From positions 620,001-684,000 of the forward strand of contig JABVCE010000003.1 in NCBI GenBank assembly GCA_014905635.1: 64,000 bases of DNA. Direction: 5' to 3'. A model generated the notes under the pieces. That model saw only the letters and a program-made list of their open reading frames with translations. It was not told the origin of the DNA and did not search any database. Shown here piece after piece: positions 18,801-64,000 of this stretch (its first letter is position 1; every line of letters begins with the position of its first letter). The DNA is from Scenedesmus sp. PABB004 (taxonomy: Eukaryota). A program made the translations under genes and the position numbers.

Positions 18801-18831
<31 letters not shown>

Positions 18832-22263: not shown

Positions 22264-22294
<31 letters not shown>

Positions 22295-22824
22295 GCGACC
22301 AGTCGCAGCGGGTCGAGGGGCGGCGCGGCGCAGCGAGCACGCAGCAGCACCACCCAGGCCACGCGAGGAGCCGCCGGGCCGCAGCGCTCACCAAGCCGTG
22401 TCGGCGCCCGCAAAGCTGCCGAGCGTGGTCGTGGCGATGAACTTGCGGCGCTCCGGAAACTTGGCCTTGACCTTGTACAGCACGCCCGGGCACAGCGCGT
22501 CCGTGGGCAGGCCGGTGGCGGTGGTGGTCACGTTGACGAGCGTCTTGCTGCGGCGGCACGGGCGGCGGGGCAGCGGTCTCCGCGCCAGTCCTGTGCTGCG
22601 AGCCAGGGCGCGCGCGTGCGCGCGCGGTGCGACAGTCGACGCCCGTGACGGCGCGCGCCAGTCCTGTGCTGCAAGCCCGGCACTCACAGGTCGGTCACGG
22701 GCCCGCCAAACTCGGCCGGGGGCGCCGCCGCGTCGCAGGCGCTGCTCGCGGGCGTCCACGCGGCGTCGGCGGCGCTGCCGACCAGCGCCAGCCCCAGCAG
22801 GGCCAGCAGCACGGCGCGGTTCAT
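21195..22824 (-). CDS. Secreted protein, copy B (inverted duplicate of 18271-19896)
   Basis: Reverse-complement copy of copy A with one visible amino-acid change (AAGGMPN vs AAGDMPN). Confidence 0.75.
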
Positions 22825-24442
22825 GGTGCGGTGGGCCTGGAAGGACTGGCCAGGGGCTGCGGCGGGCGCGTGCGGCAGCGGGGGGCGCAGCGCGCGTGGG
22901 CGCCGGCGGTCGGCGCTGCAGTGCGTTGCTGGCAGCTACGCTGGCGCAGCGCGGCTCCAGGGACCGGGCGTGAGGCGGCCGCAGCCAGGCGCTCACCGGC
23001 AGCGCAGGCACACGACCTGGCGAGGCGCGGCGGGCGCGCGCGCGCGTTCAAACGGCTAGTCCGGGCACGGGCGGCGGGGGGCCGCGGGATCGCCTGAGGG
23101 GGCTGCGGCAGCTGCTAGAACGCCGTTGGCAAGGCTGTGGCGAGCGGGGCGAGCACGCACCGCGGCCTTGACCGGGCGCCGCGGGCGTCGTGACGGTGCC
23201 GACCGCCTGGCTGCCCGGCGCGCACCCACCAGGCCACGGCCCAGCTGCTGACCTCACTGGTGTGGCCTGCCTGGCCTGCCTGCCCGCGCTCAGCAGCCCC
23301 CGCGCCGCGCCGAGCGGCCCGACGGCAGTCGCCGCGCGGCTGGCCAAGGCGTCTGATGTTGCAGGCGTGCACCACCGCCGCCCAGGGGGCCCTGGCAACG
23401 ACAACGACAACCCACGCGCCTGCGCAACCCGCTCCTGCGCGCCGCTCACGCCGGCCGCCCACGCCGTCGGCGGCCATCGGCCAGTGAAAGTCAAAGTGCT
23501 GCAAGATCCCCCCCCACACACACACACACACGCACACGGCCCCGCCAGCCTCTGGCCACCACGGTGGCGCAGCAGCAGCAAGGGCGGCACCACCGCCGGC
23601 GCGCAGCACGTGAGGGCGAGGCCCAGCCGCAGCGCGGCGCCGCCGCCCCCGCGGCATGCGGGCCGTCCGGCGCGCCCCCCGCCCCCCGCCCCCTCTTGTT
23701 TCATACTACCTTGAGGGGAGGCGTACGCCTCCGCTCCGCACGGCAAATGTGCAGCGGAAACGCTGCGACTTGGTTGGTGCCCCCCCCCCCCCCAGGCACG
23801 CCCGGCGGGTGGATCCAACCTCCAGCCTCCACCCAGGAACGCCTTGCCTGGCTCAAACCTCCCCCAGGGCCAGCCACCGCACAGCTCGAGCTTGGGCCCC
23901 CAACCCCCCGGTTGCCCCCCTGTTGTGCGGCGCCGAGGCGCTCACGGGCTTCACAAAACATGACATGGACCAGCATGCGCGGGGCGCAGGAAAGCTGAGT
24001 GCGGGGGACCGTGGCCGCCACGCTGACATGGTGTGCATGCGCAGAAGCAAAAAAAACCGATGCCGGCATCCGTCCGAGGCAGCCACCGGGCGCTGCCAGC
24101 AAACTGAATCGCGCCGCCACGCACGCGGCGGGCAGGCCAGGGGCGCTCAAGAGCCTGCCCACTGCTGTGAGTTTGCGCCCCGTACAACAAGTTTGGCCAG
24201 CCGCCGCGCGCGCGTGCGTAGTGCGCACGCGCGCGCTTTTGATTCAAGTCGGCGTGGCAGTGCAACGGGTGACAGAATGAAGGGGGATCAGATCATACGA
24301 GTGGTGTGTGTGGCGGTTCAGGCCCGGCAGCCCGGGGCCTGTGAGACTAGGTGAGGCAGGTGAGGTAGCAGCACAAAAGGGGGCGTGCGCCAGGCAGGCT
24401 AAACGCGTGCGGCGCCCCCCACACACCACGGACACGAGCCAC

Positions 24443-36044: not shown

Positions 36045-36426
36045 GAGGGCGCACCCGCCGCACGAGTAAATGCGCGCGCCGCGGCGGCCCCGCGCCGGCG
36101 GCCGCGAGCCAGCTGTCGGCGCGCCCGATCGCGGCGCCGCCGGCAGGGCCGGGCCCCAGCGACCCGGCCAGCCGCACGAGCGCACCCAGAGCGCACTGCC
36201 GCGCCTCCTAGGCGCGCCGGGAGCGCGCACCCGCCGCCGCGTCGCACGTCGCGTCGATGACGGGGCGCGCTTTTGGAGCTGCGCACGCGCCCTCAAAGAG
36301 GCCCACGCTCCTCGGCGCGCACCCACGTCTTCGCCCACGCCCGCCTCCGCACCCCCGACGCCCCAGATCGCCGCACCGCACCGCCCGGTCCCGCGCCGCC
36401 CCGCGCGCCGTCGCCGCGCCGCGATC

Positions 36427-37869: not shown

Positions 37870-38468
37870 GCTGTGCATCAAGTTGCAGGCGCGCGCGCGA
37901 GCGTGAGCGCGTGTTATTGGATCAACGCCACACGCCGGGCCTGGCGACAGCGCGCCTGACAGAGCCGGCCCTCAGACGTGCCTTGACCGCAGCGCACGCC
38001 GCAGCGCAGCGCTCGCGGCGGGGCCTCAGAGCGCTGCAGGGCGGCGGCGCGCCTGGCCACGGTGCTCGGCGCAGCCTGGACGTGAGGGGGGGGGGGCACC
38101 CGGCCACAGAGTAAATGCGCGCGAGGCGGCCCCGCGCGGGCGGCCGCGAGCCAGCTGTCGGCGCGCCCGATCGCGGCGCCGCCGGCAGGGCCGGGCCCCA
38201 GCGACCCGGCCAGCCGCACGAGCGCACCCAGAGCGCACTGCCGCGCCTCCTAGGCGCGCCGGGAGCGCGCACCCGCCGCCGCGTCGCACGTCGCGTCGAT
38301 GACGGGGCGCGCTTTTGGAGCTGCGCACGCGCCCTCAAAGAGGCCCACGCTCCTCGGCGCGCACCCACGTCTTCGCCCACGCCCGCCTCCGCACCCCCGA
38401 CGCCCCAGATCGCCGCACCGCACCGCCCGGTCCCGCGCCGCCCCGCGCGCCGTCGCCGCGCCGCGATC

Positions 38469-44416: not shown

Positions 44417-46201
44417 ATGGCCCTGCGTCGCGCGCTGGCGGCGCTGGCGTGCCGGGCGTCCGGGCGGGCAGCAGACGCCCGATGCCTCGCCACGGTGCGC
44501 GCGGCGCGCCCTGGGCGGCGTGACGCCGCCCCGTGGCGCTCCACACTCCCCTGCACCGCCCGCAGGTCGCTCAGGCCGCGCCCTGGGCGCCCGGCAGCAG
44601 CGGCGGCAGCGGCAGCAGCGGCGCGCTGCCAACGCGGCGCGGCCCGGGCGCGTCGGCGCTGCTGCAGCTGCAGCGCGCCGCGCAGCCGGCGGGCCAGCAT
44701 GCGCCCTGGCAGCTGGGTGAGCGCCGGCGGCGGCCGCGGCGGCGGCGCGGCGGCGCGCGGCCGCGCGGCGCGCAACCGCTCCTCGCTGCCGCGCGCCTGC
44801 CGCCGCCCGGGCGCGGCCGGCCGAACGCGCGCGCGCGGCCGCCGCCCTCGCCGCCGCCGCCGCCGCCCGCAGGCCAGGTGCGGGGCATGTTCATCCAGAC
44901 GCAGCCCACGCCCAACCCGCAGAGCCTCATGTTCCTGCCTGGCCGGCAGGTCATGGAGGTGCGCGGCGCGGCGCCCGCCGCGCCCGCGGCGCGCGCCAGC
45001 GGCGAGGCGGCGCCCCGCCCCGCAGCCGAGCCCCCGGCCCGCCCGCCGCTCGCCCGCAGAGTGGCAGCTACGAGTTTGCCAGCGCGCGCGCCGCGATGGT
45101 CTCGCCGCTCGCGAAGAAGCTCTTCCTCGTCGACGGCGTCACGGGTGCGTGCGCGCGCGCCCGCCGCCGCCGCTGCCGCTGTCACCGCCGCTGCGGCGAC
45201 GTGCGGCGACGCGCGGCGACGCGCGGCGACGCGCCCCGCCGCGCCCCGCCGCGCCCCGCCGCCGCGGCAGGCGTGTTTTTCGGGAGCGACTTTGTGACGG
45301 TCACGAAGCGCGACGAGCTGTCGTGGCCGGTGCTCAAGCCCGACATCTTTGCCGCGATCATGGACCACTTCAGCAGCGGCGAGCCGCTCTTCAGCGACAA
45401 GGAGGCGCTCGAGGCGAGCGACACGGCGATCCGCGACGACGACGACGAGGCGCGCGCGCGGGGCGGCGGCGGCGGCGGGCGCGCGCGGCGCGCGGCGGCA
45501 CGGCGCGGCGGCGCCCGGGCCCGGCGGCGCCCGGCGCGCGGCGGGGCGTGTGGGGGCGCGCGGGGCGCGCCGCGTTGCGCACGCGCGGCGCACGCGCCGA
45601 GCCGGCCGCGCGGCGCAGGTGGTGGCGATGATCAAGGAGCTGCTGGAGACGCGCATCCGGCCCGCGGTGCAGGAGGACGGCGGCGACATCGTGTACAAGG
45701 GCTTTGACGCCGACAGCGGCACGGTGACGCTCAAGATGATGGTGCGTGTGGGCCTGTGTGTGCGTGTGTGTGAGGGGGAGGGGCGCGAGCGCGCGGGTGC
45801 GCAGGGGCACGCAGGGGCGCGCGGGGGCGGGCAGCGGCCGCGGCGTGCGGGGGCGCGGCCGCGCCGACGGCCCACCCGCGCGCGCCGCGGCGGCGGCGTC
45901 GCTCGGCGCGGCGGGCCGCAGGGCGCGTGCAGCGGGTGCCCGTCGTCTGCGGTGACGCTGAAGAGCGGCATCGAGAACATGCTGATGCACTACATACCAG
46001 AGGTCAAGCAGGTCGTCGAGGTGCGCGGCCCGCGGCGGCTGCAGGGGCGGCGGCGGCGGGGGCCGCAGGAGGGCGGCGCGCGGCCGCGCGGCGCTGACGG
46101 CGCGCGCCGCCGCGGTGCCGGCGGTGCAGGCGCCGCCGGACGAGGGGGAGGAGGAGGGCATCAAGGCGTTTGAGCAGCTCGAGAAGCAGCTCAGCACCTG
46201 A
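44417..46201 (+). CDS. NFU1: Mitochondrial NifU-like Fe-S carrier (NFU1/NFU4 type)
   Basis: [80 protein letters not shown]. Confidence 0.95.
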
Positions 46202-48542: not shown

Positions 48543-49580
48543 ATGCTCGCTCGCGGCCTGGCGAGGCCGGCGGCGCGGCTGCGGGTGCGTGGCGGGCGCG
48601 CAACAGCAGCGCCACGAGCGCAGCGGCCCGCCGCGCCCTGCCGCCCTGCCGGCGGCGGCGCCGCCCGGCCCAGCGACCGGGCTCACCCCCGCCCGCGCCT
48701 CCTCGCGCCGCCGCTGCCGGCGCCGCAGGCGCTGCAGCCGCCGCTGCCGGCCGCGCTGCTGCGCTGCCACGCGCGGCCGCCGAGCGCCGCGCCGCCGCCG
48801 CCGACGACGCCCGCGGAGCTGCCCTCGCTCGCGGAGCTGCTGGGCGAGCACGGCGCGCGCCTGACGACGGCGGCGCAGATGGTCTGGGCGTCGGTGCTGC
48901 GCCCGGGCGACCTCGCCATCGACGCGACGTGCGGGAACGGCAACGACACGCTCTTCCTCGCCAGCGCCGTGGGGCCGCGCGGCGCCGTCGTCGGCGTCGA
49001 CGTCCAGGCCGCCGCGGTCGACGCGACGCGCGCGCTGCTCGCCGACCGCCTGCCGCCGGGGGGCGCGCCACGCGTCGACCTGCACGTCGCGTGCCACTCG
49101 CAGCTGCAGGCGCTCGTGGGCAGCAACGTGGCCAGGGTCGTCGCGTTCAACCTCGGCTACCTGCCCCGTGGCGCGGACAAGACGGTCGCGACGCGGCGCG
49201 AGACGACGCTCGCGGCGGTCGAGGCGGCGCTCGAGGCGCGCCGGGGGGGCGCGCGGCGCTCGCACGGCGCGCGGCGCGCGCCGCTGGCACGCGCGTTTGC
49301 GGCCGCGCCGCTCTGACGCGGCGGCTCCGTGCCCCGGCCGCGGCAGGTGGTCGTGCCGGGCGGGCTGGTGAGCATCATGGCGTACGTCGGCCACCCGGGC
49401 GGGCTCGAGGAGTACGAGCAGGTCCGCGAGCTGCTGGGCTCACTCTCGCCGGTTTACTGGACGAGCAGCGAGCTGCGGCTCCTCAACCGGCCGACCGCGC
49501 CAGTGCTGCTGCTCCTGTGGCGCCAGCCGGACGCGCAGGCGGCGCCCGCGGCGGCGGCCGCGGCGCGGCGCAGCTCGTGA
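48543..49580 (+). CDS. YtqB/MnmM-like SAM-dependent (tRNA) methyltransferase with transit-peptide-like N-terminus
   Basis: LRPGDLAIDATCGNGNDTLFLA, VAFNLGYLPRGADKTVAT, IMAYVGHPGGLEEYE, NRPTAPVL. Confidence 0.88.
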
Positions 49581-51568: not shown

Positions 51569-53752
51569 TCACTTGTGGGTGACGGTCACGACCTTGCCGA
51601 GCATGACCGCGGTGTTGCCGTCGAGGAAGGCGATGCGGGAGAGGCCCTCGCAGGCCTTGAACGAGTCGACGACGAGGGGCTGCACAGGCTCAAAGGTCAC
51701 CTGCGCCATCTCGTTGGCCTTGAGCGCGTGGGGCGCCTCCAGCTTCTTGCCGCCCGTCTCCTTGCCGACCTTCCAGTCGATCTTGGTCATGCGGCAGGCG
51801 GAGCGGCCGCAGCGCACAAAGCCAATCGGGGAGTAGCCGGCCTTGACCTCGCCGGGGATGTCCAGGGTCTGGATCTGCGCGGCCGCAGGGACGGGGCGCG
51901 GGCGCGGGGAGGCGGTCAGCGCACGCCGCGCGGCGGCGCGCGGCGGGGCGCGCTGGCGCTGCGCTGCCCGGCGCGCGGCCGCGCCAGCGAGCAGGCGGGC
52001 GCGCGCGGCTGGCGCGGGCGGCGCTGCCGGCGGCGGCGGCGCTGCGCGGCGTGCGCGCGCCGCACCTGGGCGGTGAAGTCCTTGCAGGGCTTGAGCGTCT
52101 GGTCGCTCTTGAGGATCATCACGTCGCCGGTGCGGGGCATGTTGCCCTTGTCGAGGCCCTTGATGTTCATGCCCACGTTGTCGCCGGGGCCGGCCTTGTC
52201 CACGCGCTTGTGGTGCATCTCCACGGTGAACACCTTGCCGACGCAGGGGTTGGCGGTGGTGTGGGTGGGCAGGAAGATGACCTCATCGCCGGGCTTGACC
52301 GAGCCCTGCTCCACGCGGCCGGCGAGCACGTCGCCCACGCCCTTGATCTTGTACGCGCCCGAGATGGGCACGCGCATCGGCGCGTCGGTCTTGCGCTCGG
52401 GCACGACGACCATGTCGTTCAGCGCCTGCGCGCGGCGCGGGGCGGTGGCGCGGCGGGGGCGCGTGAGCACGGGGGCGCGCGCGGGCTGCGCCGGCGCGCG
52501 GGCGGCGCAGCAGCAGGCGGCGCGGCAGCAGCCGGCGGGGCTGGCCGCGCAGGCCGCCGAGCGCGGCTGACGCGCAGACCACAGCTGCCGCCAGCGCGGC
52601 GCCCCGCCCCGCCCCGCCGCGCTGCGCGCCGCGCTGCGCTGCGCGTGTCGCCCCGCCGCGCGCGCGCGCGGCGCGGCGGCGCACTCACGTCGAGCAGGGT
52701 GGTGACCTTGATGGTGCGGTTGTCGAGCGTGCCGACGTCCTGGCCGGCCCACCAGGTCATCTTCTCGCTCTTCTTGATGAGGTTGTCGCCCATCCAGCCC
52801 GAGATGGGCAGGATCGGGACGTTCTTCTCCACAAAGTCCGGCTTCCAGCCCACGCGCGCGAGCATGTGGCGCATCTCGTCGCGGATCTCCACGTAGCGCT
52901 CCTCCCTGCGCGCGGGCGCAGAGGCGGGCGGGCGGGCGGGCGCGGGTGAGCGCGGCGCGGCGGCGCGCTGGGCGGCGCGTGGGCGCGCGGCGCTGCGGCT
53001 GCCGCGCGCGGCGGGCTGGCGCCGCGCAGCGCGCCGCCGCGCCGCCGCGCCGCCGCCGCCGGCCGGCCCCGCGCCGCCAGCCGGCAGCCCCGCGCGCGCG
53101 CGCGCTCACTTGTAGCCGGCCACGTCGCTGTCCATCTTGTTCACGCCGACGATGAGCTGCTTGACGCCGAGCAGGTTGATGAGGCGCGCGTGCTGGCGGG
53201 TCTGGCCCTGGATCTCGGCCGCCTTGTGGTCGCCCTTCTGGATGGCGGTGGTGAAGTTGCCGTCGGCGGGCACCATGAGCAGGCACACGTCGGCCTGGGC
53301 GGCGCCGGAGATCATGTTCTTGATGAAGTCCCTGTGCCCGGGCGCGTCGATGATGGTGTAGTGCCACTTGTCGGTGAAGAACTCCTTGGTCGTGCACGAG
53401 ATGGTCACGCCGCGCTCGCGCTCCTCCTTCTGGCGGTCCATGTAGAAGGCAAAGGCGAAGGACTGCTTGCCGAGGGCGGCGGCCTCCTCCTTGAGCTTCT
53501 CCAGCTCGCGCTCGGGGATACCGCCGAGCTCGAACAGCAGGCGGCCGGTGGTGGTGGACTTGCCGGAGTCGACATGCCCTGCGCGCGTCAGCGAGCGCGG
53601 CGGGGCGCGGGCGGCGTGAGGCGCGGCGCCGCGGCGCGGGGGCCGCCGCGCATGGCGCGCGCCCGGCCCCGCCCCCAGGCGCGCGACGAGGCTCGCCGGG
53701 GCGCGGTCTTACCGCAAATGACGATGGACAGATGCTGCTTGCCCTCGGCCAT
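51569..53752 (-). CDS. EFL: Elongation factor-like protein (EFL; eEF1A paralog)
   Basis: [84 protein letters not shown] are EFL-type signatures. 5'UTR intron ~53758-54090. TGTAA at 51164-51168 (minus). Confidence 0.96.
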
Positions 53753-54424
53753 CTTGCCTGCGCGCGAGGTGCGGCGGCGCGGCAGGGCGGCGCGTGTGAT
53801 GGCGCCGAGGATCAGCGCCGCGCCGCCCGCGCCCCGCGCCGCGCCGCAGCCCGCCCCGCCGCCCGGTTGCGGCCCCGGCGCGCCATCGCCGACCGCCAGG
53901 GGCGGCGCCGGCGCCCCCGCGTGGCCGCGCCGGCGGGTGGGAGGCGCGGCTGTTGCGGCCGCGCCGGCGCTCGCGCGCCCGCGCTCGATCAGGCGCGCCG
54001 CCGGCCTCCGGGGCGAGGCGGGAGCCCGCCCCGGCGGTCACCCATGCCCGCGCAATCCCCCCGCGCCCGGGCGGCGCGGCGGGGGCGCACCTGGATGTGG
54101 TGCTGCGGCCCCGGCGGGTACAGCGGCTGCTTGCTGCTAAACGCTGGTGGCGGACACCAGGCGCGACTCGCAGGAGCAAAGGGGCGGGCGGGCGGGCGGC
54201 GCGCCGCCTAGCGCGAGGCGAGTCTTAAACCGCGATAAAGTGGGCGTGCTCCCCGGCCTCGCTACCGCCGTGGGAGCGCCGGCCGGTGGTCTCAACACCG
54301 GCGGCTGGGGGGATGGGGGCTGCCGGGGCGCCCCGGGGGGCGCCCCGGCGCCGCGGGCGCGCGGCGCGCGTGCGCGGCGCTGCCACCGCCGCGCGCGCGC
54401 CGCGGCGCCGCCCCCAACACCGAC

Positions 54425-54660
54425 CATGGGCAGCCTATCAACGCCGGCCGCCTGAAACAGGCCACAGCGGCGTGAGGCATGACGGCTTTGGGACCGGCCC
54501 GTCGGTCGGTGCCCCGCGAGGGGCCCCGCCGCACCCGGAACGGGTGACAAGGCGAGAAACGCACGCGCACACGCCTGACCTAACCTGGCAACACAACACA
54601 ACAGCAAGAGGCCTTTTAACGTCCTGCCCAGGACGGAGAGCGCAGCGCACCGCACACGCC
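54425..54660 (-). ncRNA. Candidate Fanzor omegaRNA scaffold
   Basis: Immediately 3' of the Fanzor stop, with a cluster of stems: 54620-54635, 54532-54546, 54511-54524, 54481-54503 and nested 54441-54473. Inferred from position and structure only. Confidence 0.45.
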
Positions 54661-54662
54661 GC

Positions 54663-56475
54663 TCACGCCGGGGGGTCCACCGCGGCGGCGGCCGCCTGCC
54701 GGAACGCGCCGGCGAGGCGCGCGCCGCCCGCCGTGCCGCGGCTGCCGCGCAGCAACTCGTGCAGCGTGAGCGCGCAGATGTTGCGCGCCGCGTTGTCGTC
54801 GCGCGGCGCGACGACCGTGCACCCGGGGCACTGCACCAGACCATAGATGCCCCGCAGCTTCTCCACGCGCGCCCCGCAGACAGAGCAGGTGACGCTCGTG
54901 CGGTGCTCGTCCATGAGCACCGCGGCGACGCGCCGGCGCGCGTAGTAGGTGCGCAGCAGCGCCAGCAGCGCCTGCCGCGGCGGCCCCGGCCCCGAGATGC
55001 AGCCCCCCATGCCCAGGCTGGCGTCCCCGATGCCCAGCACCACCGCGGGCAGGTCGGCGGGCAGGCGCGCGTGCTGCCGGACGCGCCCGCGCACAAAGAC
55101 CCGGCCGTATGCAGTCAACTGAATCGCCGCATGCAGCGCGCGCTGCTTCAGCCCGTGCTTCCGCAGCCGCCACGCACACTCTGCACGGCACGCAAGCAAG
55201 CTATATGCGAATGCATTGTCCAACACATGATGCACCCGGCCGTTGCGCCACGCCCCGGCGGCGGCGACGCTCGTGCCCGAGTAGGCAGGCACGCGGTTCA
55301 GGCAGGCATGCACGCAGTCGCCGCCGCCGGGCGGGCGGCGGTCGTACCGCCCCGGCCGCCCCGGCCGCCCCTGCTGCCACAGGCAATGCCGCTCGATCCC
55401 GCGCGAGTCGCGGTGCGCGGCGGTCTTTATTCGGATGATGCGCTCCGCCTCGTAGCGGCGGCCGTGGTCGCCGCGGTGGCGCGGCGCGTTGGGGCAGCGC
55501 CGCTGCGCGATGCGGCGGTGCGCGACGCGCGTGCAGCCCGGGCCCTGCCGCCAAGTCGCGGCGCATATCATGCGCGCCCGGCCCGGGTCGATTCCAACTA
55601 TGCGCACGCCCGCGTGCACGGCCGCGGCCGCGCCGCGCAGCGCGTGCCCCGGCGGCAGGCCCTCCACGCCGCGCAGCTCGCACGGGTCGAGCGGCAGCGC
55701 GTCGAGCGCCGCCTCGTCGGCCACGCCGTGCGGCGCCAGCGCGTCGCAGAGCAGCCGCCGCGCTGCCTCCACGCCCGCGCGGTGCTCTGCCGCGCGCTGC
55801 GCCGCCTTGGCGGCGCGCGACTGCTGGCCGCGGCGCGGGGCGGGGTCGGCGGCGCCCTCAACGCGCACGCGCACGTGCAGCGCCGCCAGATCAAACGTCA
55901 CAGAGCCCGCGAAGCGCGTGTTGGCGTGCAGCACGCCGCGCGCGCGCCCGGGGCGCCGGCCAAAATCAAAATATGCATCCCAAACGGGATCGTAGCCCCC
56001 GCCCTCTTGGGTCGGCGGTGGCGGCGGCGGCGGCGGCGGCGGCTGGCCTGCCGGCTGGCCCCCCGCGGGCGCCCTGGCCTGGCGCGCGCGCAGCGCTGCG
56101 TCCAGCGCCTGCATGCCCGAGGTGGACAGGTGCAGGTGCTGGGTGCCGTACTTGGGCACCGGCGCCAGCGTGAAGGCGCGCCGCTTGGGCAGCGCCACGC
56201 GCGCGGCGTGCCGCGAGCGCAGGCCGCGCAGCACCTTGCACGCGCCCGTGACCGCGACGAACGCGTCGGGGTGCTGCCCCGCGCCGCCGGCGCGCTGCGG
56301 CGGCTGCGCGCCGCCGCTGCGGCCGCCGGGCGGCGCCGGCGCCGCGCCGGCGGCGGTCGCCGCAGCCAGCACCGCCTCGAGCGTCGCGCACACCGCGTGG
56401 CGCCAGCCGGCCGAGACATCGCGACGCAGCGCCGCGACAGCCGCCGCCGCCTCCTCGGGCGTGCGCGGCGCGCGC

Positions 56476-56520
<45 letters not shown>

Positions 56521-59500
56521 GCCGGCGGCGCCGGCGCAGCGCGACCCTGCGCGGCCGCTGCGGCGGCCAGGTGGCCGCGCGCGGCCGCCAGTCGGGCGCC
56601 GCAGTCGCCCAGCAGCCGCGCGCCCTGGTCGCGCGCGGCGCGCGCGGCGTCCGCCGCGCGGCGGGCCGCGTCCGCGTCGGGCGCCACCGCCGCGCCGTGC
56701 GGTCGCGCGAGGGCCCGCTGGTGCTGCACGAGCGCCGCGTCGCGCTCGTGGTGCTGCGCCATGGCAGCCTGCCACTCCGCCTCCACGGCTGCGAGGTCGG
56801 CCCCCACCGTCGCGTCGCCGGCGGCGGTCAGCGCGGCCAGCGCCAGCCGCAGCCGCTCCGCGGCCGCGGCCGGCAGCGCCGCGCCCGGCCCCTGGCCCGG
56901 CGCCGCGCCCGGCGCGGCGCCTTGCCCCCGGGCGCGGAGCAGCCGCGCCTCCTCTACGGCCAGCCGGCGCCGGAGCGCCGCCGCGTGCGCGTCCTTGCGC
57001 TGCAGGCGGCGCAGCCGGTTGCGGGCGTGGCGATCAGGGACCGTAGCGCCGGCGACCTCCCGCTGCAGGCCCTTGAGGGGTTCCTTGCGCAGACGCACGG
57101 CCGCCTCGCTGGCATCCACGGCGGCGCGCAGGCGCTGCACCGCCGCCTCGAGCTTGCCCAGCTCGCGCGCCCGCTGCAGCTCGCGCAGGCGCGGCTCCTG
57201 GGCGCTGGCGTCCAGCAGCTTGGGGGGCGCCGGCGGACGCTGGCCGCGGCTGCGGCTGCTGCTGCTGCTGCCGCTGCCGCTGCCCCCGCTGCTGCCGTCC
57301 AGCGCCTCTGCCAGCGACTCGACGGCCGCCGCGAGCGCGCCGGCCGACGCCGGCTCCGGGGCCGCCCCGAGCGACGCGGCGCGGCGCAGCATCGCCTCCA
57401 GCGCCGGCCGCGCCGCCGCGCCCTGCTGGGCTGCCAGCGAGTCCGCGAGCCGCGGCGCGCAGGCAGCAAACATGTGCTGCTGGCCGAGCATGACGACAAA
57501 GTCGCGCGCGACGCGGCGCGCCATGGCGTCGGCATCGCCCTCCCGGTACGCCAGGCCCTCGAGCTGCCGGGCCAGCGCCGCGCGCCAGGCGTCGTAGGCC
57601 GCGTCGTGCTGCTGCCGCGCCGCCGCGCCCGCGCCGTGCGCCAGCGGCTCCGGCGGCTGCGGCACGAGCGGCGCGCCCCCTGCCTGCGCGCCCGCGTCCG
57701 GCGCGCGCGGCATGCCGCTCCGCGCCCAGTCGAGCACGCGGCCGTGCTTGCCGGCGGCCTCGTCCGACTCCCAGCGCTGCAGGCTGGGCGTCGCCTGCGC
57801 CCCTGCCGCCTGGCGCGTGCGCGCCGCGCCGGCCGCGGGCGCGCGCGCCTCGCCGTCCGCCGCCGCCGGGTAGGGCTGCTCCAGGTGCAGGCGCATCTGC
57901 GCGAGCATGTCGCGCATCATCGCCATGGCCAGCCGCAGCCGGCCGGCGTCCTGGCCGTCGCCCGCCGCCGCGGGCACCACGCCCTCGCCCGGCTGCAGCA
58001 CGCCCTGGCGCTCCCAGAGCAGCGGCGACGCGCTGTACAGCAGCGCCGCGCCGCCGGCGATGAGGCAGTCGCGCGCGGCGCGGCTGGGCGTGCCGGCGCA
58101 GCCCGCGGCAAACCACGCCTGCAGGGCGGCGGCGTCGAGCGCCTTCTCCAGGCGCTGGCCGTCAGCGAGGTGGAGCTGCATGTTGGTGTTGTACAGCTCC
58201 GCGAGAGGGTTGAGCAGGTGGTGGTGCAGGGTTCCGGTCACCCAGGCCGGCAGGGGCACGCGCTGCAGCTCGTTGACGCCGCAGGCCTGCTCCAGCGCGT
58301 GGCGCAGGTCGCTGGACAGGCCGGTGCCGTGTCGCCGCCAGTTGCCCTGGCTAAAAAAGTTCATCAGGTCGTACACGAGCGGCGCGCCGCCGCACGCGGC
58401 CTGCAGGTAGCAGGCGCACGCGGGCGGCGGCGGCGCCGGCTGCTGGGCTGGCGGCGCTGCGGGCGGGGGCTGCTGCTGCTGCGGGCCCTGCTCCTGCGCC
58501 GCCGGCTGCGGCGGCGGCTGGCGCGTGTCCAGCCCGTACAGCCGGCTGCGCAGCGGGCGGGCGGGCGGGCGGGCGGCGCGACTCGGCGGGCGGCGCGGAG
58601 GAGGGGGCGCAAAGCGCGCGGGCGCGCCCCACCCGCGCGCGCGCGCACCTCGCCCCATACACGAGCGCCACGTGGTGCGCGTCGCGGCCGAGGATGCCCA
58701 GCCGGCTGTAGGCGCACACGAGCGCCTCGAGGTAGGGGACCACCTCTGGCTTGCGCACGGCGCCGCGCAGCGCGCAGACGCGCACGCCTGAGGCGGGCGG
58801 GCGGGCGGGCGGGCGAGGGCAGGTGAGGGGGGCGCGGGCAGGGCGCGGGGCGGCGGCGGCGCTGGGTGCCGAGAGAGCGGCCCGGCGGCCCGGCAGCGCG
58901 CCGCGCGGCGGGCACACTCACGCATGCCAGAGCCGGCCGCTGCCTTTTTGGCCTGCTCGGTCCGTTTCTTGCTGCGCTTGGTGAAGTGGCGCGGCAGCGC
59001 CTGCTGCTGCTGCCGCCCTGCCTTGTCGCCCGCCTCGGCCGCCGCTGCACCGCGCGCGGGCGAGGCACGCCCCGACGCCTCGTCGGCGCCGCGTGAGCGC
59101 TTGCGGCGGCCGCGCGGCGCCGCCGCCGCGCCGCCGCGCGAGCGCGCGCGGCCGCCGCCGCGCGAGGGCGTGCGGCCGCCGCGCGTCGCGGCCTTGGCGC
59201 TGCCGCGCGAGCGCGCGCGGCCGCGGCCGCGGCTGCGGCGCTGCGCCGCGTCGGCGCCGCGCGCGCGCTTCGCCGCCGGGCCGCCCTCCTCCTCATCGCT
59301 GCTGGCCGCGGCGCTGCCGGCGGACCAGCCGACGCTGGCGGCGGGCGCCGAGAGCACCGCCGCCATCGCCGCCGCGCGGGCGGCCTCGCCGCGGGCCTGC
59401 GCGTGGCGGCGCAGCGCCTCCCAGTCGGCGCCGCTCACGGGCTGCGCCGCGCGCTCGGCGGGGTCGATGCCGCGCGCGGGCGGGGGGCCCGGGGTGCCCC

Positions 59501-61086
59501 CGCCGCTGCGCGCGCCGCTCGTGCCGCCGCCGGTGCTGCTGCCGGCGCTGCCGCCGGCGCTGTCGCTGCGCGCGCGGCTCGTGCCGCCGCCGCTGACGCT
59601 GCCACTGCGCGCGCCGCTCTGGCCGCTCTGGCCGCCGCCGCTGGCGCCGCCGCCGCGGCGCGCGTGCTTGGCGTCGTAGCTCGCGCGCTGCTTGGAGCGC
59701 CGCACGTCCTCGTCGGACGGCCCGGCCGCCTCGGCGCGCGCCTTGGACGCGTCGAGCTCCGCGCGGCGCTCCACCGGCTTCTCCCACGCCGCGTCGATGG
59801 CGGCGGCGGTCGCGGCGCGGCGGCGGCGGCGGCTGCTGCTGCTGCTGTCGCTGTTGCTGGTGCCCAGCGGCGCCGCGGCGCCGTTGCCCTTGCCGCGGCG
59901 CTCCTTGCGCCCGAGCTGCTGCGGCTGCAGCGGCTGCAGCGGCTGCAGCGGCTGCAGCGGCTGCCGCGGCTGGCCCGCCGCCGGGCCGCCCTCCTCGTCG
60001 CTGCTGTCCGTGGCGAGCTCCGCGGCGCGCGGCGCCGCCTCCTGCAGCCGCTGCTGCGCCGGCGCGCCGCGCGGCGGCTCGCGCACCTGCTGCAGCTCCG
60101 CCGGCGCGCCGCGCGGCGGCGGCCTGCGTGCCGGCACCACCGCCGCCCAGTGGTTGAGCGGCAGCGGGTTTTGCGCCCCGAGCACGGGCGCAAACTCCGG
60201 CGCCGCGGCGGCCGGCAGCGCGAGCGCCACGAGCCGGTTGCCCTCGCTCGCCTGGAACGCGTCGCCCTGCTCCTGCAGGGCGATGAGGAGCGTGTCAGGG
60301 CTGTAGACGTCGGTCAGGAAGACCAAGTCTGCCAGGCGCATGCACAGCGCCCGCAGCTCAGCCTCGCTGGGGTAGCCCCCGGCCTCCAGGTCTCGCGCCA
60401 GCTCCTCCACGGCGTCCGCGCCGGCCACGCCGAGCACATCGCGCCAGGGCACGCCGCTCGGGTGCAGCTGGTCGCTCAGGCCCAGCTCGCGGATGAGCTC
60501 CACCGTCCGCGACCGCAGCTCGCCCGCCTGCTCGTCCAACATGTCCAGCACGTCGGGTTCGAAACTGCGCAGGTCGTGGGTCGGCTCCTGCAGCTCCGCC
60601 GCCTCCAGCATGCGCAGCACGGCAATCGCAATGAGGGAGAACCCGCACAGGCCGTTGGCGCGGCCGTGCACGAGCGCGTACCCCTTGTCCTCCAGCTCGC
60701 GCTTCAGCAGCGCGAGCTGCGCGCCGGTGCACGTGCCCGCCGGCGCCATGAGCTTCGGCGGCGCCCGCGCTGGCGCGCCGCGCGGCGCGGCCGCCGGCGG
60801 CTGCCGCTGCAGCGGCGGCGGCACGGGCGGCGGCGGCGCCGGCGCCGGCGCGCCGCGCGGCGCGGCTGCCGGCGGCTGCCGCTGCTGCGGCGCCACGGGC
60901 GGCGGCGGCGCCGGCGCCGGCACCGGCGCGTCGTCCGGCCGCGGCGCCGGGCTGCCGCCGCGCCAGCCGCTCCCGCTGACGCTGCCGCTGCCGCTCCCGC
61001 TGCTGCTGCTGGGCCCGGGGCTGCCCCTGCCGCCACCGCCGAGCGCGGCTGCGCGGCCAGGGCCCGGCCCGCGCGCGGCGGGCAGC

Positions 61087-61120
<34 letters not shown>

Positions 61121-61708
61121 GGGGCGGCGCTCGCGCGCCACGGTGCGCCACTCGGCCGCCGCGTCGCTGGGCTGCCGCCCCTGCTGCGGCGGCGGCTGCG
61201 GCGGCTGCGGCGGGCTGCGGCTGCGGCTGCGCCCGCCGCACGGGGCAGGCGCGGCCGCCGGCGGCTGCCGCTGCAGCGGCGGCGGCACGGGCGGCGGCGG
61301 CGCCGGCGCCGGCGCGCCGCGCGGCGCGGCTGCCGGCGGCTGCCGCTGCTGCGGCGCCACGGGCGGCGGCGGCGCCGGCGCCGGCACCGGCGCGTCGTCC
61401 GGCCGCGGCGCCGGGCTGCCGCCGCGCCAGCCGCTCCCGCTGACGCTGCCGCTGCCGCTCCCGCTGCTGCTGCTGGGCCCGGGGCTGCCCCTGCCGCCAC
61501 CGCCGAGCGCGGCTGCGCGGCCAGGGCCCGGCCCGCGCGCGGCGGGCAGCGCGCCGCCGCCGCCGCCGCCGCCGCCGCCGGGGGGGCGGCGCGCGCGCGC
61601 CACGGTGCGCCACGGCGGCGACGCGTCGCTGGGTTGCTGCCCCTGCTGCGGCGGCGGCTGCGGCGGGCTGCGGCTGCGGCTGCGCCCGCCGAACGGGGCG
61701 GGCACGCC

Positions 61709-61744
<36 letters not shown>

Positions 61745-62090
61745 AGGGTCGCCAAGCGTAAACACCGCCGCCTGCTCATCGGGCGTGAACCCGATGTCCC
61801 AAAACCCCGGCGGGGTCTCGGGAGGCGCGTGCTTGGCGCGGTGCCGCGACGCGGCCTGCAGCGCGGCCGGGGCCAGCGCGTGCGTGCACGGGAGCAGCAT
61901 CATGGTGCCCGGCGCCGGCGCGCCCCAGGTGGAGAGGGCGCCGTAGAAGTCGCGGCACTGAGCGCAGTCGTGCCCCGGCAGGTCCTGGCGCGCCGGCCCG
62001 CGCACCACCTCCTGGTACGCGAAGCCGCCGGCAGCGGGCGGCTGCCGCGGCGCCGACGCGCCCGCGCGCTGCTGCTGGTGCTGGTGCTGG

Positions 62091-62123
<33 letters not shown>

Positions 62124-62392
62124 GGCGGCGGCGGCGGCTGCAGCCAGTCCTCCTCCTGCCCGCGATACGCGCGGCGCCAGCCGGCGCCCGCCGGCGGCGG
62201 GCGCGGCTGCGCCGGCGCCGCCGGCTGCGGCGCGGGCTGCGGCGCGCCCCAGTTCAGCACCGGCAGCGCGAAAAGGCCGGCGGGCGCCACGGGGTGCGCG
62301 GGATCGGCCTGAGCCGGCGCGCCGGCGCGCTGCTGCGCCTCCTGCTGCCCGCCGCCGATCGGCGGCGGCGGCGGCTCCGGCTCCGGCTCCAT
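54663..62392 (-). CDS. Giant Fanzor1-type RNA-guided nuclease with N-terminal Sae2/CtIP-like and OTU-like domains (two introns; one apparent 1-nt frameshift at ~61119-61124)
   Basis: RuvC-I RIVGIDPGR (D 55587-55589), VLGIGDAS, RuvC-II MDEHRTS (E 54906-54908), CSVC...CPGC zinc finger, RuvC-III RDDNAARNI (D ~54798-54800), upstream FTLAPVPK. GT-AG introns 58788-58921 and 58546-58648 restore VRVCALRGAVRKPEVVPYLEALVCAYSRL. Confidence 0.85.
60130..60700 (-). other. OTU-like cysteine protease domain within the Fanzor ORF
   Basis: YALVHGRANGLCGFSLIAIAV (Cys at 60645-60647), LRSRTVELIRE, YPSEAELRALC, NHWAAVVP (His at 60150-60152); same order as OTU Cys loop, LR helix, E-helix and His strand. Confidence 0.6.
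60770..61690 (-). repeat. Intragenic tandem duplication (~464 bp unit) with shorter internal sub-repeats; Pro/Gly/Ser-rich linker
   Basis: GGGGALPAARGPGPGRAAALGGGGRGSPGPSSSSGSG...PPAAAP occurs twice; anchor ggcagcgcgccg at 61081 and 61545. Confidence 0.92.
61787..62023 (-). other. Sae2/CtIP (COM1) C-terminal domain
   Basis: FAYQEVVRGPARQDLPGHDCAQCRDFY...SRHRAKHAPPETPPGFWDIGF contains the EVVR, CxxC, RHR and TPxxFW motifs that define the CtIP/Sae2 domain. Confidence 0.88.
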
Positions 62393-63370
62393 GGCGCCCA
62401 GCGCGCCCTCAGCCGAGGCCGTGGCGCCTGACGGCGGGGCGGCGCGGCGCGGCGCGGGGCGGCGCGGGGCGGCGGCATGAATCTTCCGGAACGCGGCGGA
62501 GTGCGCGATCCGAGCGGCCGCGACGCACGCACCACACACGCGCCTCACAGGCTGCTGTCCATCGCGGCGCGCGCCGGCTTGGGCTTGGGCTGCCGGCAGC
62601 GCGCGCGCCCCAGTCGCCCGATCGACCGGCTGTGCATCGCGGAAGGCTCTCGCCGGGCGCGGGTGACCGCTGCGTGCCTCCGACCGTGAACGATCTGGTG
62701 CCCAAGCGCCGCGCACCGGATTGTGCAGACGGTCGCGGCGTGCCGCCTGAACCGCCGAGCAGCCCCGACGCGCGTGCTCGCCCGCCCGGGGGGCGGTACT
62801 CTGAATCGACGACGCTAATTGGAGATTCAGGCAGCTCATCGCCGGGGCAGCGCAGGCCGCGCGGGCCGCGCAGGCGTGGTGCAGGCGTGATGGCCCACGT
62901 CGACGACGCGACCGTGCTGCGCGACGCCGCGCTCGACGCGGCCGCGTTTGGCGGCCCGCCGCCCGCGCTCGGCACCGCGAGCACCGCGGTGCTGCCGCGC
63001 ACGGCGGTGGCGTGACCCACGGGCGGCGGCGGCGCAGCGGGCGCGCGACGGCCGGCAGGCGGGGCAGCAGGCGGGGCAGCAGACGTGGCAGCGCGCTGGC
63101 GGCGCGTCCGACGAGGCGGCAGCAGCGCAGGGGGGGGGGGATGCGACGAGGTGTGGCAAGCCAGCGGCTGGGCGGGTGGTGGTCGCGCGGGGCAGCGAGC
63201 GAGCCAGCGGTGGGGCGGGGTCCGGTGCCGGCGTGGGGCGATTCTTTGACCGTGGCTGGTGACAGCGGGCGCGTGCCAGTTGCGGGGGCGGGGCGGACGG
63301 GGGCGTTGGTTGCTTGCGCGCCACTAGCGCGGGGACGCTAATACTAGCAGCACAGCGGGGGGACGTGAGG

Positions 63371-63895
63371 TTAACCTAAGCTGCCCGACGCCGACGCGCT
63401 GCCGCGCCGCGCCGCGCCCGCCGCGCCCGCGCCCGACGCCGACGCGCTGCCAGCCCTCGCGCGCGCCGCCGCGGCCGCCGCCGCGCCCGGCCGCCGGCGG
63501 CGCCGCGCGGCGGCGTCGGCGACCTCGCGCCGCAGCTGCTCGACCAGGCGCGCCGCGAGGCGCGCGACCTCGTCGTCGTGGTGCGCGCGCAGGCCCTTCA
63601 GCGTCCGGCCCAGCTGCGGCGTCGCGGCCAGCTGCTCCTCTCCCAGGCGGTAGCAGGCGAGCTGGCGCAGCGCGCCGCGCACGCCCGCGAGCGCGCCCGG
63701 CGCGCCCGGCGGCGCACTCAGCGCCGCGAGCAGGCGCGCGAGCTCCGCGCCGTCGGCGCTCTGCGCCGGCAGGAGCACGACGCCCGCGCAGTCGGCTATG
63801 CGCGCCTGGCGCTGCGCCGTCCGCCTGCGCGGCTGCTGCTGCTGCTGCTGCTGCTCCTGCGTCAGGGGGGCGAAGAAGGCCGTTATCTTCGCCAT
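63371..63895 (-). CDS. Small TFIIS-N-terminal (Med26/LW-like) helical domain protein with PIP-box-like N-terminus
   Basis: ALRQLACYRLGEEQLAATPQLGRTLKGLRAHHDDEVARLAARLVEQLR; N-terminal KITAFF. Confidence 0.65.
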   Translation of the reverse strand: MAKITAFFAPLTQEQQQQQQQPRRRTAQRQARIADCAGVVLLPAQSADGAELARLLAALSAPPGAPGALAGVRGALRQLACYRLGEEQLAATPQLGRTLKGLRAHHDDEVARLAARLVEQLRREVADAAARRRRRPGAAAAAAARARAGSASASGAGAAGAARRGSASASGSLG

Positions 63896-64000
63896 CGCGC
63901 CGCCGCCGCGACGCAGCTGCGCGCGCAGCGGCTGCAGCGCTTGAACGGCGAGCGGCCGGGTGCGGCGTGCGCGGCGCGTGCGGCGGTGCAGACAGCTGCC

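Follow-up and report, generated by a model that had tools for sequence, protein, structure and literature searches.

Introduction

The locus described here raises the question of whether a stretch of DNA from Scenedesmus sp. PABB004 encodes a genuine Fanzor1 nuclease, and whether such a gene would be a mobile element, a host gene, or a relic. Fanzors are, to our knowledge, the sole eukaryotic RNA-guided DNA nucleases, and they are under development as compact genome editors. The window, i.e. the whole stretch of DNA that was analysed, is 64 kb long and comes from a eukaryotic genome of ~80% GC. With a probability of about 0.72, the flagged stretch represents the C-terminal nuclease half of a genuine Fanzor1-family gene, still maintained as coding sequence in the nuclear DNA of this very GC-rich eukaryote. 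It is a divergent new member of the family, of an otherwise ordinary and intact-looking kind, in an unusual setting.

Motifs of the C-terminal module

The sequence-only reading had described five motifs in a fixed order with no stop codon among them, and this description was borne out in one minus-strand frame. The single open frame at 54663-56276 contains GIDPG, GIGDA, DEHRTS-VT-CSVC, CPGC, and RDDNAARNI in that order. It comprises part of the WED domain, RuvC-I, a helical insert, RuvC-II, the zinc-ribbon TNB, RuvC-III, and the stop codon. Its features are as follows.

54663-56276, minus strand: putative Fanzor1-family C-terminal module, ORF residues 1780-2316
55872-55913, minus strand: WED strand with FDL replacing the Fanzor1 TDG, the register being set by the flanking F-x-G-S-x-T and by alignments with homologues and with the TDG segment of SpuFz1
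55581-55595, minus strand: GIDPG, RuvC-I motif, ORF residues 2007-2011, with the candidate catalytic Asp at residue 2009
55020-55034, minus strand: GIGDA, ORF residues 2194-2198, probable place of the canonical RuvC-II strand according to the alignment
54894-54911, minus strand: DEHRTS, ORF residues 2235-2240, with the putative alternative catalytic Glu at residue 2236, immediately preceding the zinc ribbon
54876-54887, minus strand: CSVC, ORF residues 2243-2246
54819-54830, minus strand: CPGC, ORF residues 2262-2265
54819-54887, minus strand: C4 zinc ribbon CSVC...CPGC with Cys 2243, 2246, 2262, and 2265, matching Pfam Cas12f1-like_TNB
54777-54803, minus strand: RDDNAARNI, RuvC-III motif, ORF residues 2271-2279, with the candidate catalytic Asp at residue 2272
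54663-54665, minus strand: stop codon

In GIGDA, a Gly stands where classical TnpB has Glu, and the G and A of this motif are invariant in the family alignment. The D, E, and T of DEHRTS are also invariant, while the GIDPG column, the four Cys, and the R and D of RuvC-III are near-invariant. All three catalytic positions and every zinc-binding residue are intact in the window. The motif set is unique in the 64 kb, with one hit in a six-frame motif scan and the self-match alone in tblastn. The absence of stops carries less weight than it might seem to, because a 537-codon open frame has a chance probability of ~0.006 at the window's base composition and long overlapping frames occur at ~80% GC. 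Frames that overlap real genes reach considerable lengths in the window too, for example a 1,355-codon ORF on the opposite strand. The motif set itself, as judged from the Pfam E value, the homologue-only profile, and the published signature, is far beyond chance.

Membership of the Fanzor clade

The Pfam family PF07282 matches the module at an E value of 9.5e-10 (38.9 bits, the cut-off being 26.3), and a shorter piece of it at 6.9e-10. The TnpB/Fanzor signature given by Bao & Jurka 2013 (PMC3627910) is D-X(125,275)-[TS][TS]-X-X-C4-X(5,50)-RD in the C-terminal half. The module reproduces it with D2009, 229 residues, T2239 and S2240, V and T, the cysteines C2243/C2246/C2262/C2265, five residues, and R2271 with D2272. 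The earlier claim of a rearranged active site, with the Glu shifted next to the zinc finger, is upheld by a residue-for-residue alignment in which E2236 of the window falls on E467 of the mimivirus Fanzor2 ApmFNuc (PDB 9b0l). As reported in PMC10530073, E467 of ApmFNuc is essential according to mutation, and Fanzors have Pro or Gly at the canonical RuvC-II Glu position. The module has DPG in RuvC-I, and a Glu by the zinc ribbon together with a non-acidic canonical position. The combination of DPG and alternative Glu had been taken as typical of Fanzors. This agrees with the published signature, but the combination is not specific to Fanzor1, since PMC10711439 describes it as marking the whole clade of Fanzor1, Fanzor2, and pro-Fanzor TnpB.

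An all-against-all HMMER search of 1.84 billion representative proteins gives 27 proteins at E <= 0.001, the best being P0002 (E 3.3e-20, 36% identity). These matches have in common DPG, GxG(D/N)A, DE-x-(R/K)-TS-C4, and DRD-x-NAARN. A profile built from 13 homologues, with the window sequence left out, reaches 143 bits over ORF residues 1974-2314, and from its WED strands onward the module is collinear with homologues from metagenomes. The branch is very thinly sampled, because only these 27 of 1.84 billion proteins reach the threshold. Moreover, the present copy extends the sequence range known for the family, because it is fully recoded to a host of ~80% GC. A scan of viral contigs shows 80 loci of TnpB/Fanzor-like genes, in which identity is 25-49% and the match is confined to the final 40-130 residues. 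The flagged stretch is thus confirmed, at the level of sequence comparison, as a Fanzor-clade RuvC/zinc-ribbon module.

A word-indexed protein search with the nuclease part returned no match, low-complexity words having probably swamped the candidates, and the same search with P0002 returned P0002 itself as the sole match. Locus L001, the single locus from a metagenome scan with one protein, is a false positive. It is a bacterial-type contig of 69% GC with a 150-residue HTH-like ORF and a chance eight-residue pattern.

Placement within the clade

When the family profile is compared to PDB, SpuFz1 is the best match, with an E value of 1.4e-17 when the window query is included in the profile and 2.2e-15 when it is not. 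With the query in the profile, the SpuFz1 match begins at the TDG strand and continues to the C-terminus. PpFz1 follows at ~3e-13, GtFz1 at 4.7e-13 and 1.4e-11, and ApmFz2 at 2.8e-12 and 1.4e-11, the last over the C-terminus alone. TnpB, Cas12f, and TranC reach 1e-5 or worse. Searched on its own, the window sequence matches the Fanzor2 chain 9b0l at an E value of 0.0049, and no chain of Fanzor1 appears at E <= 10. The Fanzor1 placement therefore rests on the family profile, because the single-sequence search matches Fanzor2 and no Fanzor1 chain.

The WED motif TDG is a Fanzor1 motif according to PMC10711439. The window has FDL at this position, so that the Asp alone is kept, and P0002, P0005, P0013, P0028, and SpuFz1 have TDG in the same register. 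Fanzor2 proteins are described in PMC10711439 as TnpB-sized and linked to IS607. No recombinase domain occurs in the scanned neighbours of the module, and the module plus the WED strands already exceeds 530 residues.

Two structure models of the protein are poor, with a mean pLDDT of 54.6 and 55.0. In Foldseek, a model of pLDDT ~55 places SpuFz1 chains at ranks 1-4 (best E 4.8e-8), and all 14 matches at E <= 0.001 are Fanzor or Cas12-type nucleases. With VIA-align, SpuFz1 gives a Z of 12.3 over 235 residues, and Fanzor1, Cas12j, Cas12f, Fanzor2, and TnpB give Z values of 9.5-12.3 over 174-242 residues. The fold searches with models of this quality (pLDDT ~55) thus recover a RuvC fold of the TnpB/Cas12 type, at a TM-score to SpuFz1 of just 0.29 in both models and with a high rmsd. 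The label 'Fanzor1-type' given by the sequence-only reading finds support in both the profile-to-PDB ranking and the fold ranking, and a position of the module closest to Fanzor1, above Fanzor2 or TnpB, is supported to the same extent.

Fanzor1 REC1/REC2 are helical domains, in which a kinked helix pair embraces the heteroduplex. In the low-confidence model, a pair of long helices stands between RuvC-I and RuvC-II, at construct residues 667-720, and numerous helices lie further upstream. No structural match reaches upstream of about construct residue 487, and the sole confident piece of the upstream part in AF2 is a helical hairpin at construct residues 20-112.

Gene model upstream of the module

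In the splice model, the module appears to form the C-terminal end of a reading frame of ~1,950 residues, and the gene probably has two introns. The model is one of 11 frame-keeping GT-AG combinations, and its parts are as follows.

56277-58545, minus strand: continuation of the module's exon and frame on the upstream side, ORF residues ~1024-1779, rich in helices and containing runs of Ala, Gln, and Pro, GC1/2/3 of 0.87/0.61/0.95
58546-58648, minus strand: predicted intron 2 of the splice model, GTGCGC...CAG, 103 nt
58649-58787, minus strand: predicted small exon B in a shifted genomic frame, GC1/2/3 of 0.82/0.47/0.96 in its own frame, with flanking GT..AG sites that restore the downstream frame
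58788-58921, minus strand: predicted intron 1, GTGAGT...CAG, 134 nt, where the main-frame codon periodicity breaks
58922-60749, minus strand: predicted exon A, starting at the first Met (60749) of the coding-like stretch, GC1/2/3 of 0.80/0.64/0.96

Over 60749-54666, GC3 is 0.91-0.96 and GC2 ~0.6, which gives a three-base GC periodicity over ~6 kb. The module itself has GC1/2/3 values of 0.79/0.60/0.91, in contrast to a flat 0.76-0.77 in the 3' flank. Codon usage and periodicity are host-like.

The REC/WED half should lie in 56277-58545. It was not recognised there by Pfam, PDB, a word search with the upstream 270 residues, or the Atlas. Est1-like Atlas matches for 57597-58406 were discarded, as their scores of 0.77-0.79 are below any useful level. 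Exon A has no Pfam or PDB match, and no domain is recognised in the 1,400 residues upstream of the module. A coding-like segment runs over 59634-60818. Within exon A, the part at 60048-60749 is a globular region with Cys/His motifs, followed by disordered Ser/Gly/Arg-rich sequence, and basic NLS-like clusters lie at 59088-59111 and 58944-58979. On its Cys...His motif pattern, the globular region would be at most a tentative OTU-protease candidate. It has a weak Atlas match (score 0.89, rank 9) to a cluster with OTU in 19% of its members.

Genomic setting

Downstream of the module lies an intron-split EF-1α-family gene, and upstream a CtIP/Sae2-like gene with the SAE2/CtIP C-terminal domain, both on the same strand as the module. 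CtIP/Sae2 is a DNA-end-resection factor. A single C-run within a tandem repeat, at about 61117-61122, sets the CtIP/Sae2-like frame apart from the Fanzor frame through its length alone.

Fanzor1 genes are typically transposon-borne, including those of green algae, according to PMC3627910, PMC12633428, and 10.1101/2024.09.03.611062. Within the window, the marks of a eukaryotic transposon (ends, TSDs, transposase, multiple copies) do not appear around the module. No transposase, Rep/helicase, or other transposon domain occurs in the scanned coding-like segments at 56.3-64 kb or in five at 42-49 kb. All 25 pairs of terminal inverted repeats listed are GC-rich low-complexity sequence, and none is credible. 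There is no second copy of the module in the 64-kb window.

53750-54662, minus strand: 3' flank of ~910 nt, separating the module from the EF-1α-family gene downstream, with no codon periodicity; it would have to contain the omega RNA and any element end

No Rfam family matches in the whole window, and the RNA fold of 54380-54780 is no better than that of shuffled sequences (z 0.21). In run X1, the 3' flank, where a guide-RNA scaffold would be expected, diverges faster than the coding part, with differences at 17 of 269 nt plus two gaps against 5 of 603.

Variation among related contigs

The contigs compared with the locus are shorter than 900 nt and break at GC-rich repeats. Among the ten differences from them that are listed for 54869-55284, seven are synonymous and three non-synonymous. 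On these ten sites, the differences in the RuvC part would be biased to synonymous change. At 58157-58332 and 60224-60298, 8 of the 11 differences listed alter the protein.

In runs X5 and X6, which are metagenomes from two studies, 9 nt replace 54701-54802 in frame and the RuvC-III motif is lost. The joint at 54700/54803, which has 30 nt on one side and 249 nt on the other and recurs in two runs, was retained. Most other joints were disregarded, as their sides are 20-23 nt long and lie in low-complexity sequence.

State of the gene

The sequence-only reading had seen here a potentially active programmable nuclease. From the intact motifs we infer that the module could be catalytically competent. 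The putative active site would combine the Asp of GIDPG and that of RDDNAARNI with the relocated Glu of DEHRTS, the former RuvC-II position being occupied by Gly. If the protein works like its solved relatives, the guide RNA that it binds would be transcribed from the 3' region of its own gene. The guide would then pair with DNA beside a short TAM motif, and the single RuvC site would cut both strands. The C-terminal half of a maintained Fanzor1-family gene is compatible with three states, each of which is doubtful when taken singly.

Domestication is possible, yet rather unlikely. The Fanzor would then be the C-terminal domain of an intron-containing host protein of at least ~1,950 residues, at a fixed locus and with a host function, with or without guide RNA. 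The continuous coding signature over 60749-54666 is consistent with such a protein, as are the GT-AG introns that restore the frame around the small shifted exon and the host-like codon usage. The single copy between the EF-1α-family and CtIP/Sae2-like genes on the same strand, the lack of transposon hallmarks in the scanned segments, and the synonymous bias in the RuvC part also point to a settled gene. However, long open frames are readily produced at 80% GC, the long transcript is predicted, the 1,400 upstream residues have no recognised domain, and a recently immobilised element would look identical. Moreover, known domesticated TnpB relatives have lost catalysis (10.1101/2023.11.30.569447), whereas the window's triad is intact. 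None of the literature matches listed for Fanzor and domestication describes a domesticated Fanzor.

A narrower form of the domestication reading is improbable. Here the module would have ceased to be transposon cargo and would serve a giant host protein, encoded with introns, as its C-terminal domain; its locus would be fixed, on the same strand as CtIP/Sae2 and immediately downstream of it. If true, this would be the first eukaryotic RNA-guided nuclease to be domesticated with its catalytic site still intact, and its role might lie in host DNA-break metabolism. If the long gene model and the fixed position hold, the locus would be a test case for a selfish guided nuclease becoming a host gene.

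An active selfish element is unlikely. In this case the gene would be the cargo of a still-mobile transposon, whose guide-RNA/nuclease complex cuts empty sites and thereby keeps or spreads the element. The catalytic residues, the zinc ribbon, and the codon periodicity are all preserved as such an element would need, and the transposon-borne habit of Fanzor1 genes, green algae included, fits as well (PMC3627910, PMC12633428, 10.1101/2024.09.03.611062). In contrast, there is one copy in 64 kb, the scanned segments have no transposon domain, and no terminal inverted repeats are credible. The 3' flank is without structure signal (z 0.21) and diverges faster than the coding part, and TDG is degenerate. 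In addition, the intron-containing algal Fanzor1 of PMC10530073 gave no cleavage.

A young relic, i.e. an immobilised and non-functional copy in which stop codons, rare at such GC, have not yet accumulated, is likewise unlikely. The change of TDG to FDL, the unrecognisable WED/REC half, the in-frame loss of RuvC-III in relatives' contigs from two studies, the 8 of 11 protein-altering differences listed outside the RuvC part, and the lack of a guide-RNA signal in Rfam or the 3'-flank fold would suit decay. However, the three-base GC periodicity is strong over ~6 kb next to a flat non-coding flank, 7 of the 10 differences listed in the RuvC part are synonymous, every catalytic and zinc-binding residue is intact, and the 537-codon open frame has a p of ~0.006.

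Comparison with known systems

Solved Fanzor1 proteins: SpuFz1 of Spizellomyces punctatus (PDB 8GKH, 9CEU-9CEZ), PpFz1 (9CF0), and GtFz1 (9CER) are the best profile matches, and Fanzor1 is also the best fold match, with SpuFz1 first. They share with the window the WED strand of TDG type, RuvC-I, the helical insert, the Gly-type RuvC-II, the alternative Glu, the C4 ribbon, and RuvC-III, and they also come from eukaryotic hosts. In contrast, identity is 13-18% in structural alignments, and the window has FDL where they have TDG. The window's frame has roughly three times the length of SpuFz1, for which PMC3627910 gives 633 residues. Moreover, neither transposon ends nor a guide RNA were found in the window.

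Fanzor2 ApmFNuc (9B0L): This protein is the best single-sequence match in PDB (E 0.0049), with the Glu, the zinc ribbon, and RD-x-NAA-x-NI aligned. However, the match covers the last ~50 residues alone, and ApmFNuc ranks below Fanzor1 in the profile and fold searches.

Green-algal Fanzor1 elements: CRe-1/2/3 of Chlamydomonas reinhardtii are described as Helitron2-borne with 5-10 exons (PMC3627910, PMC10530073). Other algal cases are the Fanzor families of Chlamydomonas giant endogenous viruses and an abundant Fanzor repeat of Auxenochlorella (10.1101/2024.09.03.611062, PMC12633428). The sole intron-containing algal Fanzor1 tested in PMC10530073 showed no in vitro cleavage. Like the window with its predicted introns, these elements are described with a green-algal-type nuclear genome, introns, and host adaptation. 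By their published descriptions they are set apart in being multi-copy, with element ends or a Tc1/mariner transposase, whereas the window has a single copy and neither of these.

TldR-type relatives: Domesticated TnpB relatives of this type have lost the RuvC catalytic residues (10.1101/2023.11.30.569447) and are catalytically dead. In contrast, the three catalytic positions of the window are intact, although one relative's contig is without RuvC-III.

Metagenomic homologues: P0002, P0005, P0013, P0003, P0014, and others are the nearest relatives of the module, with 30-39% identity and the same motifs. They lie on short contigs (0.6-21.5 kb), one of them in a MAG labelled Gammaproteobacteria, and none of the ten checked is from a named eukaryote. 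In most of them the insert within the zinc ribbon is longer, and TDG is kept wherever the region is present, in contrast to FDL in the window. Like the window, they also have GxG(D/N)AS-G-x-x-x-ISR and W-R-L-R-x-H.

Identity of the module as a Fanzor-clade nuclease

The locus is read as an intact-looking, selection-maintained gene of the Fanzor1 family, at a probability of about 0.72, with a mobile, a domesticated and a young relic gene all possible. The sequence-only reading had described a catalytically intact RuvC and zinc finger in the expected order without stops. Direct reading confirms the motifs, with all five sets in one minus-strand frame, and the interpretation as a potentially active programmable nuclease is partly supported. 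Features of this frame, in reading order:

55581-55595 (-): GIDPG
55020-55034 (-): GIGDA
54876-54911 (-): DEHRTS, then V-T, then CSVC
54819-54830 (-): CPGC
54777-54803 (-): RDDNAARNI
54663-54665 (-): stop codon

Counted from its first start codon the frame has 2,316 codons, and between stops 2,370. Stop codons are scarce because the window is 74-82% GC, and the opposite strand carries a 1,355-codon ORF. The probability of 537 codons staying open in a random frame at the window's base composition is ~0.006; frames overlapping genes are also long, so the absence of stops alone is weak evidence. Within the 64 kb window, neither a six-frame motif scan nor tblastn with the module detected another copy.

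The zinc-ribbon TNB domain of TnpB/Cas12f is called by Pfam (PF07282, E 9.5e-10; score 38.9 bits, cut-off 26.3). The original Fanzor/TnpB signature, given in PMC3627910 as D-X(125,275)-[TS][TS]-X-X-C4-X(5,50)-RD, is present with spacers of 229 and 5 residues. Among solved structures, the top single-sequence match is the mimivirus Fanzor2 9b0l (E 0.0049), and the Glu of the window aligns to its residue 467. PMC10530073 describes this residue as the alternative glutamate of RuvC-II, cleavage being lost when it was mutated, and gives Pro or Gly as the Fanzor residue at the canonical Glu position. DPG with the alternative Glu had been taken as the Fanzor active site; as a clade signature this is correct, yet in PMC10711439 the signature covers Fanzor1, Fanzor2 and a few 'pro-Fanzor' TnpBs and is not specific to Fanzor1. 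At the level of sequence, the catalytic core is competent.

Homologues and assignment to Fanzor1

When 1.84 billion representative proteins were searched exhaustively with HMMER, only 27 matched the module at E <= 0.001; a single one also passed E <= 1e-10, the metagenomic protein P0002 (E 3.3e-20, 36% identity). All ten homologues whose source was checked lie on short metagenome contigs (10/10); the single one with an organism label, a Gammaproteobacteria MAG, is probably mis-binned. The full motif set is common to the homologues and the module, which, starting at the WED strands, is collinear with the longer ones and thus gives no sign of an intron within the nuclease part. A profile of 13 homologues, with the window sequence excluded, scores 143 bits on ORF residues 1974-2314.

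The family profile was compared with the sequences of all PDB chains, with and without the query in the profile.

Best matches of the family profile (E with query; E without query; matched part)
SpuFz1 (Fanzor1): 1.4e-17; 2.2e-15; TDG strand to C-terminus (search with query)
PpFz1 (Fanzor1): 3.3e-13; 2.6e-13; C-terminal part best
GtFz1 (Fanzor1): 4.7e-13; 1.4e-11; RuvC-I to near the C-terminus
ApmFz2 (Fanzor2): 2.8e-12; 1.4e-11; C-terminus only
TranC, Cas12f, TnpB: 1e-5 or worse; 5.7e-5 or worse; zinc-ribbon region

Two AlphaFold models of poor quality were built from shallow alignments (12 and 14 rows), with mean pLDDT of 54.6 and 55.0 and ~70-80 in the RuvC core. With these low-confidence models, Foldseek ranks 1-4 are SpuFz1 chains (E 4.8e-8 to 3.8e-6, TM 0.29), and VIA-align on a poor model gives SpuFz1 Z 12.3 over 235 residues, with Cas12j, PpFz1, Cas12f and ApmFz2 at about 10. 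The assignment to Fanzor1 is supported by both profile and fold searches, which put SpuFz1 first. Against it, the window sequence by itself matches Fanzor2 and no Fanzor1 in the single-sequence PDB search. In addition, TDG in the WED, characteristic of Fanzor1 (PMC10711439), stands at the same register in SpuFz1 and the metagenomic homologues P0002, P0005, P0013 and P0028, whereas the window reads FDL. The module is therefore provisionally placed with Fanzor1, under these two reservations.

Expected guide RNA and proposed mechanism

By homology, the module is predicted to bind a guide RNA that comes from the 3' region, to recognise with it a TAM-flanked target and to cleave through one RuvC site made up of D2009, E2236 and D2272; the C4 ribbon would act as the target-nucleic-acid-binding domain. 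The guide RNA of Fanzor1 is expected in the 3' flank, according to PMC10530073 and PMC10711439. In that flank, no Rfam match and no fold stability beyond shuffles (z 0.21) were found. The sole intron-containing algal Fanzor1 tested so far, as PMC10530073 reports, formed an RNP and did not cleave.

Variation in public metagenome runs

Parts of the locus are present in eight public runs from four studies, all metagenomes (RNA runs, 0), and contigs from four runs were aligned to 53500-62500. Metagenome run X1 shows differences at 5/603 nt in the coding piece 54769-55371 and at 17/269 nt, plus 2 gaps, in the 3' flank piece 54406-54674, the flank diverging faster than the coding part. Among the differences listed, which cover few tool-chosen sites pooled over runs, 7/10 in 54869-55284 are synonymous, a weak hint that the nuclease part is under purifying selection. 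In 58157-58332 and 60224-60298, 8/11 listed differences alter the protein.

Activity is counted against by a form found in one contig each of runs X5 and X6, from different studies. There, 54701-54802 is replaced by 9 nt, a net in-frame loss of 93 nt that deletes RDDNAARNI together with the helix after it; RuvC-III is therefore missing from one or more related lineages or copies. The X5 contigs of this form have a k-mer depth of about 30, versus 2-14 for other gene pieces, so another organism of higher abundance, or additional copies, may be their source. A further candidate relative, 10076-10528 of contig L001 from a metagenome pattern scan, was rejected as a bacterial-type contig with an HTH/excisionase-like ORF and one 8-residue pattern common by chance.

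Gene model

In the Fanzor frame, codon-position GC carries the mark of coding sequence between about 60750 and 54700 (GC3 0.91-0.96, GC2 ~0.6); it is flat in the 3' flank (0.76-0.77) and reaches GC3 0.98-1.0 in the adjoining EF-1α-family exons. Given this strong host-like pattern, the gene is fully adapted to this host. The sole break lies at about 58950-58550, where the 139-nt piece 58649-58787 shows this pattern in a shifted reading frame (GC1/2/3 0.82/0.47/0.96), with GTGAGT...CAG and GTGCGC...CAG on its two sides. Removal of both predicted introns restores the downstream frame. Two introns around a small exon are thus a model rather than a demonstration, being one choice beside 10 other GT-AG combinations that likewise preserve the frame.

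Taken at face value, the predicted protein has ~1,949 residues, with its start Met at 60749 and the following parts:

N-terminal globular region, without recognised family
Long disordered stretch, rich in Ser/Gly/Arg and bearing basic NLS-like clusters
~700 helix-rich residues before the Fanzor module, without recognised family
Fanzor module, last

By analogy with full-length homologues of ~630 residues, such as the metagenomic protein P0012, the Fanzor proper would begin near ORF residue 1450, with a putative WED/REC half. The globular N-terminal region (60048-60749, -) has one Cys-containing and one His-containing motif, a pattern reminiscent of OTU-type cysteine proteases; no Pfam or PDB match was found for it, and a weak Atlas match scores 0.89, with 19% of the cluster members carrying OTU.

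Neighbourhood and standing

Downstream on the same strand lies an EF-1α-family gene with several introns (51572-53750, -; GTP_EFTU E 2.5e-40, domain 2 and C-terminal domain), whose start codon near 53750 is about 910 nt past the Fanzor stop; it served as the codon-usage reference for the host. Directly upstream on the same strand is a SAE2/CtIP C-terminal domain (61748-62413, -; PF08573, E 7e-13). Such a domain normally closes a protein. The CtIP frame stays open to 60704, ~360 codons past the domain, and so reaches the point where the Fanzor-containing gene is predicted to begin. The interval 60752-61753 holds a tandem pair of units, about 453-464 bp each, with 333 nt 100% identical. Unit 1 has its peptide in the CtIP frame, unit 2 has the same peptide in the Fanzor frame, and a C7 versus a C6 run plus one extra GGC accounts for the difference; one base, real or an assembly error, therefore decides if the CtIP-like and Fanzor genes share a frame.

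No transposase, Rep/helicase or recombinase domain was found in seven coding-like segments (56.3-64 kb) and five (42-49 kb), and inverted repeats across 53.7-62.5 kb are GC-rich low-complexity only. The locus is therefore host chromatin with no mobile element visible in the scanned parts of the window, though element ends could be short.

Fanzor1s of green algae are already described: CRe-1/2/3 of Chlamydomonas (PMC3627910), several families carried by a giant endogenous virus of Chlamydomonas (10.1101/2024.09.03.611062) and an abundant Auxenochlorella repeat (PMC12633428), so the present gene is a divergent addition to a known family. What is unusual is its setting: a single, host-like copy in the window, embedded in a very long frame, flanked by housekeeping genes and beside a CtIP-like gene. 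Among the 20 papers listed out of 37 on Fanzor and domestication, titles and abstract openings name no domesticated eukaryotic Fanzor, which is not proof of absence.

Other host-type exons in the window are a putative rRNA methylase (48789-49274, +; PF06962, E 1.9e-18), an Nfu/NifU N-terminal domain (45198-45509, +; PF08712, E 1.9e-11) and a weak TFIIS/Med26-like helical bundle (63464-63991, -; E 8e-4). A direct repeat of at least 300 nt (36080-36379 and 38122-38421, 99% identity, spacing 2,042 nt) sits among 30-nt Gly/Asn/Ala-type tandem repeats. A large near-perfect palindrome at 17642-23456, around a 628-nt centre, has arms that are 100% complementary (17801-19133/21962-23294 and 19111-20231/20860-21980) and a GC of 0.74-0.76, below its surroundings; either an error of assembly or a genuine inverted duplication could account for it.
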